Position numbers and translations under genes: made by a program | Notes under the pieces: model-generated | What the model was told of the DNA's origin: nothing | What the model saw: only the letters and a program-made list of their open reading frames with translations | The model's database searches: none | Source: a virus | Lineage: Duplodnaviria > Heunggongvirae > Uroviricota > Caudoviricetes | Length of the DNA stretch: 51,620 nucleotides | Direction: 5' to 3' (one strand) | IMG/VR virus record: IMGVR_UViG_2541047950_000002 | Location: 1-51,620 of that record | Part shown: piece after piece, positions 45,971 to 47,560 of the stretch | Layout of the letters: the number at the start of each line of letters is the position of its first letter | Numbering within the stretch: position 1 is the stretch's first letter

Positions 45971-47560
45971 ATGACAGTAAAAATTTCTGGCGTGCTTAAA
46001 GATGGCACCGGCAAAGCGGTACCTGGATGCACGATTGAACTCAAAGCCCTGCGGACGACGGAGACGGTGATTGTCACCACCGTGGCAGAGGGAGAGCCGG
46101 GAGAAAACGGCAGTTACAGTATGGATGTGGAGCCGGGGTATTACCGTGTGACGCTGAACACAGAGGGGTATCCACCGGTGCACGTGGGAAACATCACCGT
46201 CAGTGCTGAATCAGCACCGGGGACACTGAATACGTTTTTGCTGAATGAAGAGACTGCGGCGGCGTACCCGAAGGCGCTGGTCGAACTGGAGGCCGCTGCC
46301 GCGGAAATTCTGGCGCGCGCGGAAGCGGCGGCGCGTAGTGCGGAGGTGGCGGAGGCAAAGGCAGCGAATGCCCGGGGGCCAAAGGGAGATAAGGGTGACC
46401 CGGGACCTCAGGGGGTACAGGGTCCGGCAGGCCCGACAGGAGCAACCGGCCCCGCGGGGCCACGGGGTGAACGTGGTGAACAGGGCATACAGGGGCCAGT
46501 TGGTGCAACCGGACCGGCGGGGCCGCGAGGAGAGCAGGGTATTCAGGGACCGGCAGGTCCGGTCGGTCCCCGAGGAGAAACCGGTGCCAGAGGAGAAAAG
46601 GGCGACCCGGGCGGCCCGCCAGGGCCGAAGGGTGACACAGGCGCTAAAGGAGATGCCGGACCTGCTGGCCCTGCCGGAGAAAAAGGCGAACCCGGTGAGC
46701 GTGGGCCTCAGGGATTACAGGGACCACCGGGTCCTGCCGGAGAGAGAGGGCCGACAGGCGAAGCTGGACCTGCGGGTCAACCGGGGCACAAAGGAGACCC
46801 GGGTCCTGCTGGCCCACAGGGACCGGCGGGAGAGCGGGGACCTCAGGGGCCGCAGGGTGTAGCTGGTCCTGTCGGCCCGGCAGGCGAACCGGGAGCGAAA
46901 GGCGATAAAGGTGACCCCGGACCTGCTGGTCCTCAGGGGCAGCCCGGTCCTCAGGGACCTGCTGGCGAAACCGGACCCGCGGGTGAACCCGGGCCAAGAG
47001 GTGAGCCCGGTCCACAGGGACTTAAAGGTGACAGGGGCGAGCCAGGACCTACAGGCCCACAGGGACCGGCGGGAGAGCGGGGACCTCAGGGGCCACAGGG
47101 TGTAGCTGGTCCTGTCGGCCCGGCAGGCGAACCGGGAGCGAAAGGCGATAAAGGTGACCCCGGAGGAACCGAACTGCTTGCTTCAGCCAATACATGGACT
47201 CAACCACAAACTATTAATGGCGATTTGACGGTAACCGGAAACGGCTCATTTAACGACGTTCAGATCCGCTCGGATAAACGCAACAAGCGAAATCTGGTAA
47301 AACTGGATAATGCGTTAGATCGTCTGGAGGCACTTACTGGTTATCTTTACGAGATACAGTACTCTGCCGACGGTTGGCAAACGTCGGTTGGTTTAATTGC
47401 TCAGGATGCACAAAAAGCATTGCCTGAACTGGTAACTGAAGACGCAGACGTTATATCTGGTGAAAAACGTCTGCGTCTTAACTACAACGGCATAATTGCA
47501 TTGTTAGTCGAAGGCTTTAAAACACTTCGTCATGAGATTAAAGAACTCCGGGAGAAGTGA
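45971..47560 (+). CDS. stf: side tail fibre with collagen-like Gly-X-Y tract and C-terminal S74-type chaperone domain
   Basis: N-terminus [15 protein letters not shown] matches lambda Stf; about 90 Gly-X-Y triplets; C-terminus ([11 protein letters not shown]..., EIKELREK) resembles autoproteolytic intramolecular chaperone domains. Confidence 0.75.
46811..47163. repeat. near-perfect 110-bp direct repeat (two copies 243 bp apart) within the collagen-like tract
   Basis: GGCCCACAGGGACCGGCGGGAGAGCGGGGACCTCAGGGGCC.CAGGGTGTAGCTGGTCCTGTCGGCCCGGCAGGCGAACCGGGAGCGAAAGGCGATAAAGGTGACCCCGGA occurs at about 46811 and 47054 with one mismatch. Confidence 0.7.

Follow-up and report, generated by a model that had tools for sequence, protein, structure and literature searches.

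The DNA analysed here is a stretch of 51,620 nucleotides (nt) taken from a virus record of IMG/VR (Caudoviricetes; IMGVR_UViG_2541047950_000002, positions 1 to 51,620), and is hereafter called the window. Its gene order, read from open reading frames (ORFs) together with Pfam and PHROG matches, is that of the right arm of a lambda-like Escherichia coli prophage. The side tail fibre (Stf) gene of this prophage, at 45971-47560, encodes a collagen-like protein in which only 33 residues separate the collagen tract from a C-terminal domain resembling a self-cleaving chaperone. The locus raises the question of how such a fibre would recognise a receptor, and whether its binding tip is encoded by a second gene; an initial annotation, made from the letters of the sequence without database searches, had suggested the next ORF (47646-48158) for that role. 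In this study, both genes were analysed by profile searches, alignments with solved structures, structure modelling, comparison with loci of other phages and a survey of the literature. Taken together, the data make it very likely that the two genes act together in receptor recognition, as a module carried by the side tail fibre of this lambda-like siphovirus prophage of E. coli.

Results

The fibre gene

The fibre gene, its domains and the gene that follows it have the following coordinates (aa, amino acids):

45971 to 47560, plus strand: side tail fibre gene, EPclD-type collagen-like Stf, ATG start, 529 aa
45971 to 46366, plus strand: N-terminal anchor, PfN or phage_tail_N (PF08400), aa 1-132, 133 bits
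46247 to 46375, plus strand: Ala/Glu-rich segment, aa 93-135, presumed from the sequence to be a trimeric coiled coil, 'PCoil'
46376 to 47170, plus strand: collagen triple-helix tract, 27 + 61 Gly-X-Y triplets, from Pfam and the sequence
47171 to 47269, plus strand: mature fibre tip, aa 401-433, predicted adhesin docking surface, from alignment to S16 gp37
47270 to 47557, plus strand: Peptidase_S74 intramolecular chaperone, aa 434-529 (96 residues), PF13884
47270 to 47287, plus strand: SDKRNK motif, predicted catalytic S434 and K439 and predicted autocleavage R433^S434, from motif alignment
47646 to 48158, plus strand: short Gp38-type tail-fibre adhesin, 170 aa, PF21721 and phrog_1121
47646 to 47780, plus strand: Gp38_N attachment domain of the adhesin, aa 1-45
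47781 to 48155, plus strand: beta-sandwich of the adhesin, putative specificity domain, aa 46-170

The fibre ORF was found to have the coordinates and the overall layout that the initial annotation had described. Three Pfam families were recognised, namely phage_tail_N (aa 1-132, 133 bits), Collagen (143 bits) and Peptidase_S74 (aa 434-489, 46 bits); the protein also matched phrog_366 (tail fiber protein) at an E value of 4e-124. It is identical to WP_021574164.1 of E. coli FHI_NMBU_11, which is annotated as 'prophage tail fiber N-terminal domain-containing protein'. The N-terminus had been proposed to resemble the anchor of lambda Stf, and this was borne out by 53% identity between fibre aa 1-123 and lambda orf-401 (the N-terminal part of Stf) and by a match of aa 1-90 to the tail-fibre chain of PDB entry 9E7M (E 6e-30); past residue 123, no similarity between the fibre and lambda orf-401 was found. 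The Ala/Glu-rich segment at aa 93-135 is presumed to be a short coiled coil, and may be likened to the PCoil of EPclA, a trimeric alpha-helical module that has been demonstrated experimentally (PMC3368898). Two kinds of match were set aside. NCBIfam models of streptococcal and Legionella collagen-like adhesins scored far below their cutoffs on the fibre, through the collagen repeats, and are not meaningful; likewise, PDB matches to collagen (3HQV and others) reflect Gly-X-Y composition and not common ancestry.

The downstream gene and its Gp38_N domain

The ORF at 47646-48158 is preceded by a Shine-Dalgarno-like run, GGGGGAG. It had been described as Gly/Ser/Thr-rich, which holds only moderately (33% of its 170 residues are G, S or T). 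The accompanying suggestion, that the fibre tip is encoded separately by this ORF, was supported: Gp38_N (PF21721) was recognised at 72 bits (cutoff 25), the full length of the protein matched phrog_1121 ('tail fiber adhesin', E 1e-62), and the gene is linked to fibre genes across phage types, as described below. The gp38 protein of phage S16 (6F45 chain D) also aligned with aa 1-44 of the adhesin (E 0.0019); the 6F45 structure comprises three fibre chains A and one adhesin chain D. Across 24 homologues, conservation of residues W7 and W20 is at least 90%; by our reading of the alignment with 6F45 chain D, these residues appear to correspond to the Trp 'prongs' of S16 gp38. In S16, the conserved gp38 Trp residues insert into the exposed dock (PMC7917993).

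In the remainder of the protein, no match to PF05268 (the GP38 polyglycine and hypervariable-loop domain) was found at E <= 0.01, and no Gly runs or glycine-rich motifs were seen when the protein was compared with proteins P0013 and P0025. PF05268 is the binding part in characterised Gp38 proteins. Because both features are absent, the sequence assigns the 170-aa protein to a short class of Gp38_N-domain adhesins (phrog_1121), and not to the classical Gp38 proteins. An AlphaFold2 (AF2) model of the adhesin reached a predicted local distance difference test (pLDDT) score of 83. Residues 46-170 are a beta-sandwich and not the polyglycine domain of classical Gp38, and this C-terminal beta-sandwich, which is without a close solved relative, is the one modestly new aspect of the protein. 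Among enterobacterial adhesin alleles, mean identity was 87% over the N-terminal 45 residues and 63.5% over the C-terminal domain, the pattern expected of a constant dock joined to a variable specificity domain. A HMMER scan of 1.8 billion representatives returned only 53 relatives at E <= 0.001, most of them sharing the N-terminal domain only; short adhesin-like proteins are also present in T4-like Proteus phages.

The naming of these proteins by annotation pipelines was found to be inconsistent. The window adhesin is identical to WP_021574165.1, a 'hypothetical protein' in RefSeq, and a sister allele, WP_000539251.1, is named 'receptor recognizing protein Gp38'; neither allele matched an NCBIfam model. 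In the literature, we found no experimental study of the short adhesin class or of Gp38-type adhesins on lambdoid side fibres. Homology to the T4-type gp38/Tfa chaperones was also considered for this protein and rejected, and PMC9659904 concerns the unrelated T4 gp38 chaperone and not the T2-type adhesin.

It might be argued that the 170-aa protein serves only to help the fibre fold, in the manner of the assembly chaperones T4 gp38 and lambda Tfa, and is absent from the virion, in which case the 33-residue tip or a retained C-terminus of the fibre would bind the receptor. We regard this as improbable. Although the gene occupies the position of lambda tfa, no Pfam or PHROG match of its product to Tfa-type chaperones was found, and the fibre already has an intramolecular chaperone of its own. 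One homologue in BFVD is named 'distal long tail fiber assembly catalyst', and the protein is without the classical Gp38 binding domain; the one domain recognised in it, however, is that by which the virion-borne T2/S16 adhesin attaches, and the Trp residues are conserved there. Moreover, a variable C-terminal domain behind a conserved N-terminal domain is the pattern of a specificity determinant and not of a chaperone.

The fibre tip and the C-terminal chaperone domain

Thirty-three residues (aa 401-433) were counted between the last triplet and S434, close to the figure of about 35 that had been estimated earlier. This tip aligned with the segment of S16 gp37 that precedes its cleavage site, and the sequence ...GNGSFNDV(Y/Q)IR before the cleavage motif is conserved across fibres of many phage types. 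At aa 434-489, PF13884 was matched at 46 bits (cutoff 22, E 6e-12), with the domain extending to the stop codon. S16 gp37 (6F45 chain A) aligned with fibre aa 413-528 (E 3.5e-13), placing SDKRNK of the fibre opposite SDRRIK of S16 gp37. When the window fibre was aligned with 26 diverse fibre ends collected from IMG/VR loci (27 sequences in all), R433, S434, D435 and K439 were invariant. The profile of these 27 ends was compared with PDB sequences and matched 6F45_A (6e-32) and the tail fibre 8JOV (2e-9), as well as the auto-processing domain of MYRF (7DC3, 8e-9) and the phi29 gp12 autochaperone (3GUD, 1.5e-4). These results agree with the chaperone-type C-terminus of the initial annotation. 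Furthermore, the matches to chains A and D of 6F45 indicate that the fibre tip and the downstream ORF are homologous to the partners of one solved complex.

The intramolecular chaperone of S16 is autocleaved at DLNVS^SDRRIKK (PMC7917993, citing Dunne et al.), and this autocleavage exposes the gp38 dock (PMC7917993). Similarly, gp37 of T2 and T6 is cleaved and then capped by gp38 (PMC3157838). By analogy with these phages, the window fibre most likely cleaves itself at NDVQIR^SDKRNK, releasing 96 residues.

Alternatively, the S74-like domain could stay on the fibre uncleaved, as a distal trimerisation or binding knob like PfC of EPclA, with the adhesin binding elsewhere or not at all. PfC, which is unrelated, is a stable trimerisation knob that is kept on the EPclA fibre (PMC3368898), whereas the S16 homologue is cleaved at exactly the position predicted here (PMC7917993). 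While monomer modelling left the fold of the fibre C-terminus unconfirmed (pLDDT 58), the Ser and Lys residues of S-D-x-R-x-K are invariant across the 27 diverse fibres, and the motif lies at a constant 92-114 aa from the stop. Retention of the domain is therefore considered very unlikely.

Linkage of the adhesin and fibre genes across phages

Linkage was assessed in a sample of 46 IMG/VR viral loci with a Gp38_N gene. In 36 of these, the gene directly upstream encodes a fibre ending in ...NDV(Y/Q)IR^SDxRxK, with the motif 92-113 aa before the fibre stop. Such a fibre was found one gene further upstream in 5 more loci (motif 95-114 aa before the stop), which brings the total to 41 of 46. In the latter loci, one gene lies between the fibre and the short adhesin:

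L035 (positions 3-4013), L037, L040, L042 and L046: loci with an intervening gene, on IMG/VR contigs of 35-225 kb, four of the five at 150-225 kb

In L035, the only one of the five that was scanned, the intervening gene encodes a classical GP38 (PF05268 plus Gp38_N). The short adhesin comes second, in tandem, and across these loci is up to 70% identical to the window adhesin; two adhesins behind one fibre, as in L035, with attachment domains of the same kind, might give virions with mixed tips. Across the linkage loci, which include contigs of 150-225 kb and prophages of about 60 kb, the fibre shafts differ widely, some being collagen and some not.

A close copy of the module was found in phages carrying Shiga toxin (Stx) genes. 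Over the last ~130 fibre codons, the spacer and the adhesin gene, the window DNA is 96% identical to that of the Stx2 phage P13374 (O104:H4), and the same 96%-identical cassette is present in phi191, Ss-VASD and 75/02 Stx; the Stx-phage copy is annotated as 'tail fibre adhesin' or 'receptor recognizing protein Gp38'. Given this identity, and given the linkage over differing shafts, we conclude that the tip-plus-adhesin cassette is a mobile module common to the fibres of myo-, podo- and siphoviruses.

The spacer between fibre and adhesin genes measures 85 nt in the window. In the lambdoid and Stx-phage loci, its length stays at 85-86 nt; in the remaining loci, from non-lambdoid phages, the genes abut or overlap each other. 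The window spacer has a folding energy of -32 kcal/mol (z -2.2) and contains one hairpin of note:

47603 to 47623, plus strand: hairpin within the 85-nt spacer, perfect 9-bp stem and 3-nt loop, sequence GTGGGGTGA CAC TCACCCCAC

No T-run accompanies this hairpin on the plus strand, and it is unconvincing as a terminator on the coding strand. It may set the ratio of fibre to adhesin expression.

The collagen tract and variation in its length

The collagen tract was found to hold 88 Gly-X-Y triplets (about 90 had been estimated), of which 27 lie at aa 136-216 and 61 at aa 218-400. The single break, of one residue, falls within GDPGGPPG (aa 211-218; nt 46601-46624). At 0.29 nm per residue, the collagen helix is expected to be about 77 nm long. 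Within the tract lies a direct repeat:

46811 to 46921, plus strand: direct repeat copy 1, 111 bp, identical to copy 2 at 110 of 111 bases
47054 to 47164, plus strand: direct repeat copy 2, 111 bp, 243 bp downstream of copy 1

The initial annotation had reported a perfect repeat of 110 bp with copies 243 bp apart. The repeat and its period of 243 bp were recovered, but the copies are 111 bp long and not perfect: they differ at one base (46852 G versus 47095 A), a synonymous change of CCG to CCA (Pro). Both copies are in frame, and the 37 aa that they encode are identical. The longest exact blocks within the repeat are 41 and 69 bp, whereas the whole 243-bp units are only 70% identical (82% over the 3' 192 nt). 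When the tract was shuffled 1000 times by codon position and 1000 times by triplet, the longest exact repeat had a mean of 14-16 nt and a maximum of 32 nt, compared with the 69 nt observed. The 111-bp repeat is thus far beyond chance for a low-complexity collagen coding sequence.

The proposal that such a repeat allows the fibre to vary in length was supported by natural alleles of a sister gene. The same collagen cassette is present in the fibre gene of short-tailed O111 prophages, and three O111 sister alleles (L007, L009 and L010) showed zero mismatches at aligned positions. The sole difference between L007 (2265 nt) and L009 (2022 nt) is a stretch of 243 bp, flanked by a 269-nt perfect direct repeat. 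In L010 (1959 nt), a further 63 bp, flanked by a 10-nt repeat, is absent. Because O111 alleles differ by exactly 243 bp between repeats, these alleles are direct evidence that the copy number of the 243-bp unit changes by recombination between repeats, and they show just as directly that microhomologies give rise to shorter in-frame deletions. Such changes may depend on RecA, as the initial annotation proposed, on a recombinase of the phage or on slippage during replication. An exchange between the two window copies would shorten or lengthen the protein in frame by 81 aa (27 triplets), or about 23 nm of the helix; after loss of one unit, a protein of 448 aa is predicted. Two repeat copies were present in all three lambdoid-form alleles examined (window, L003 and L004).

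Genomic setting

The neighbouring genes and elements of the window are as follows:

41024 to 44140: J
44165 to 44446: small ORF, phrog_557 'outer membrane protein'
44443 to 45060: small ORF, phrog_425 'membrane associated protein'
45165 to 45896: lom
45923 to 45956, plus strand: terminator-like hairpin and T-run, between the lom stop and the stf start
48234 to 48446, plus strand: DUF4376 tail-fibre-region remnant, C-terminal 70 aa, PF14301 31 bits
after the DUF4376 remnant, minus strand: dinI
49021 to 50118, minus strand: integrase
50207 to 51244: chromosomal gene, presumably dusA from a reading of its translation

The fibre gene (45971-47560) directly follows lom, and the 170-aa ORF (47646-48158) comes next. 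The hairpin at 45923-45956 has a 10-bp stem with 7 GC pairs, followed by TTTTTTTATT. This strong hairpin, which resembles an intrinsic terminator, suggests that late transcription reaches stf and the adhesin gene only by antitermination, and that the expression of lom, and its termination, can be independent of the fibre genes.

Positions 45971-48489 are 100% identical to E. coli FHI_NMBU_11. The identity stops at about 48489, where the reference continues with IS1414 and adjoins yecD/aspS; unlike FHI_NMBU_11, the window past 48490 runs into dinI, the integrase and the putative dusA. Since the flanks differ beyond this point, nearly the same fibre module is present in prophages at different chromosomal sites. 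In other strains, nearly the same module was found near btsS, potB, hyaA and yecD, and a 2.5-kb query from the locus gave at least a partial match in 1715 of 5426 complete genomes.

Upstream, the window J aligned with residues 1-969 of lambda J at 66% identity. It is without the final ~160 aa of lambda J, which we take to be the C-terminal receptor-binding region, and has a short unrelated tail instead; identical copies of J are labelled 'incomplete, missing C-terminus' by the Prokaryotic Genome Annotation Pipeline (PGAP). The two small membrane-protein ORFs between J and lom share a 4-nt overlap, 3' of J. The second of them (44443-45060) may correspond to ORF70 of the Stx phage P13374, with which it agrees in annotation and length, and J together with the two small ORFs could be an alternative arrangement of the central-fibre tip and not a pseudogene.

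Downstream of the adhesin gene, the DUF4376 remnant covers positions 154-223 of 223 of phrog_11571 ('tail fiber protein'), and PGAP calls it 'missing N-terminus'. It is probably non-functional in the window. In strain UTAK-6, an intact DUF4376 gene of 222 aa (L004:5201-5869) lies 3' of the adhesin gene, and the gene after it encodes a protein that ends in a YadA C-terminal domain.

The incomplete annotation of identical J copies, this DUF4376 remnant, the insertion sequence (IS) elements and frameshifts in related loci, and the two-copy repeat state of all three lambdoid alleles might be read as a decaying remnant of a defective prophage with no working fibre and with the 111-bp repeat as a passive relic of an old duplication, but this seems scarcely tenable, given that both ORFs are full length with catalytic and docking residues conserved, that Stx phages with phage genome records of their own in GenBank carry the tip-plus-adhesin cassette at 96% identity, and that otherwise identical alleles of the same collagen cassette have undergone a one-unit, 243-bp change.

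Discussion

In the mechanism that we propose for the two-gene module, three copies of the 529-aa fibre protein would attach to the tail tip by their Stf-type N-terminal domains. They would trimerise via the short coiled coil and the C-terminal S74 intramolecular chaperone, and the collagen triple helix of ~77 nm would zip up. The chaperone (the last 96 aa) would then remove itself through a Ser434/Lys439-dependent autoproteolysis between R433 and S434, exposing a small trimeric fibre tip. One 170-aa adhesin would dock on this tip via its Gp38_N domain, with W7 and W20, and would present its C-terminal beta-sandwich as the actual receptor-binding domain. Host range would be altered by exchange of the C-terminal domain of the adhesin, and each unequal recombination between the 111-bp repeats would change the reach of the fibre by 81 aa (~23 nm). 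In this scheme, cleavage, docking, the 3:1 stoichiometry and receptor binding are modelled on the homologous T2 and S16 systems (PMC3157838, PMC7917993), and the adhesin is predicted to be located in the virion.

Several points weigh against this mechanism. When the fibre C-terminus was modelled as a monomer by AF2, from an alignment of 11 sequences and for what is an obligate trimer, the model had a pLDDT of only 58 and a predicted template modelling score of 0.39, and it placed an implausible long helix over the cleavage motif; we infer the S74 fold of this region from sequence evidence only. Because the adhesin is without the PF05268 binding domain, receptor binding by its beta-sandwich is an extrapolation. 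Also, it was in the podovirus-type sister gene alone, and not in the three lambdoid alleles, that a 243-bp change was observed, and the prophage may be defective, with J flagged as being without its C-terminus. Finally, our literature search found no experiment on cleavage, virion incorporation or receptor binding of the pair or of its Stx-phage copies.

The module shares its principal traits with the tip of T2 and S16 (PDB 6F45; Dunne et al. 2018; Trojet et al. 2011). In both, the fibre ends in ...V(Y/Q)IR^SDxRxK, an S74 chaperone of about 100 aa comes after the cleavage motif, and the next gene starts with Gp38_N and conserved Trp residues. The two differ in the shaft: that of the window, which belongs to a siphovirus prophage, is a collagen triple helix joined to a lambda Stf anchor, whereas that of T2/S16 is a beta-helical gp37 on a T-even baseplate. 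They also differ in the adhesin: that of the window has 170 aa and a beta-sandwich C-terminal domain, whereas classical Gp38 proteins have 250-290 aa, with a polyglycine sandwich, glycine-rich motifs and hypervariable loops.

The architecture of the fibre is that of the EPclD class of collagen-like proteins, which was defined for prophages of enterohaemorrhagic E. coli in Ghosh et al. 2012 (PMC3368898), with Stx2-86 gp21 as the prototype. Common to both are PfN, a coil (in the window, from the sequence), a long Col tract with a single GxPGGPxG interruption, and a C-terminus unrelated to PfC; the window fibre has PF08400 and PF01391 and is without PF06820. Moreover, its collagen and C-terminal DNA is ~93-94% identical to Stx2-86 orf21 and the O111 relatives. 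Within this class, the window fibre is distinguished by a true Stf-type PfN (133 bits) together with a short coil of ~43 aa and 265 aa of collagen. PMC3368898 left the C-terminal region, 'PfC2', without a database family and, in the sections consulted, did not discuss a chaperone or self-cleavage role for it.

With respect to P13374, the fibre end, spacer and 170-aa adhesin of the window are 96% identical to those of ORF65 (fibre) and ORF66 (adhesin), the latter being named 'receptor recognizing protein Gp38' in RefSeq. However, P13374 and its relatives are short-tailed (Sepvirinae), with another fibre N-terminus and two collagen blocks, whereas the window cassette is carried on a lambda-type side tail fibre beside J and lom. 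With respect to lambda, the order J - lom - stf is the same and the anchor is 53% identical over 123 aa. Unlike lambda Stf, the window fibre is without the Pf2 repeat and the T4-gp37-like distal domain, and no tfa-type gene was found downstream by Pfam and PHROG. Folding would thus differ from that in lambda in being carried out by an intramolecular chaperone, and binding in being left to a separate adhesin.

The tip module is already known from T2/S16-type and Stx phages, and the present locus is an ordinary, well-explained case. The EPclD architecture (2012), the S74 and Gp38_N families and the annotation of the Stx-phage adhesin are all established, the mechanism is that of T2/S16, and no new question is opened by the fibre-adhesin pair. 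An adhesin of up to 70% identity is present in large myoviruses, in addition to the copies in short-tailed Stx phages and lambdoid prophages. It is conceivable, though doubtful, that the short Gp38_N adhesins (~160-180 aa) represent a distinct plug-in receptor-binding class, with a beta-sandwich that has no solved relative and a receptor other than porin loops, shared by myoviruses (there in tandem with a classical Gp38), Stx phages and lambdoid prophages and, in the temperate phages, combined with a collagen shaft tuned in 23-nm steps by repeat recombination. If so, a collagen shaft of adjustable length could let the adhesin reach through O-antigen or capsule of varying thickness.

The practical value of these findings lies mainly in annotation, with the adhesin at present called a 'hypothetical protein' and the fibre named by its N-terminal domain only. 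Recognised as a cleavable fibre with a plug-in adhesin, the pair becomes a likely host-range determinant of a prophage type found in many pathogenic E. coli. The movement of a single tip cassette between the fibres of myo-, podo- and siphoviruses bears on how Stx phages and related prophages acquire new hosts, and also on the engineering of phage host range.

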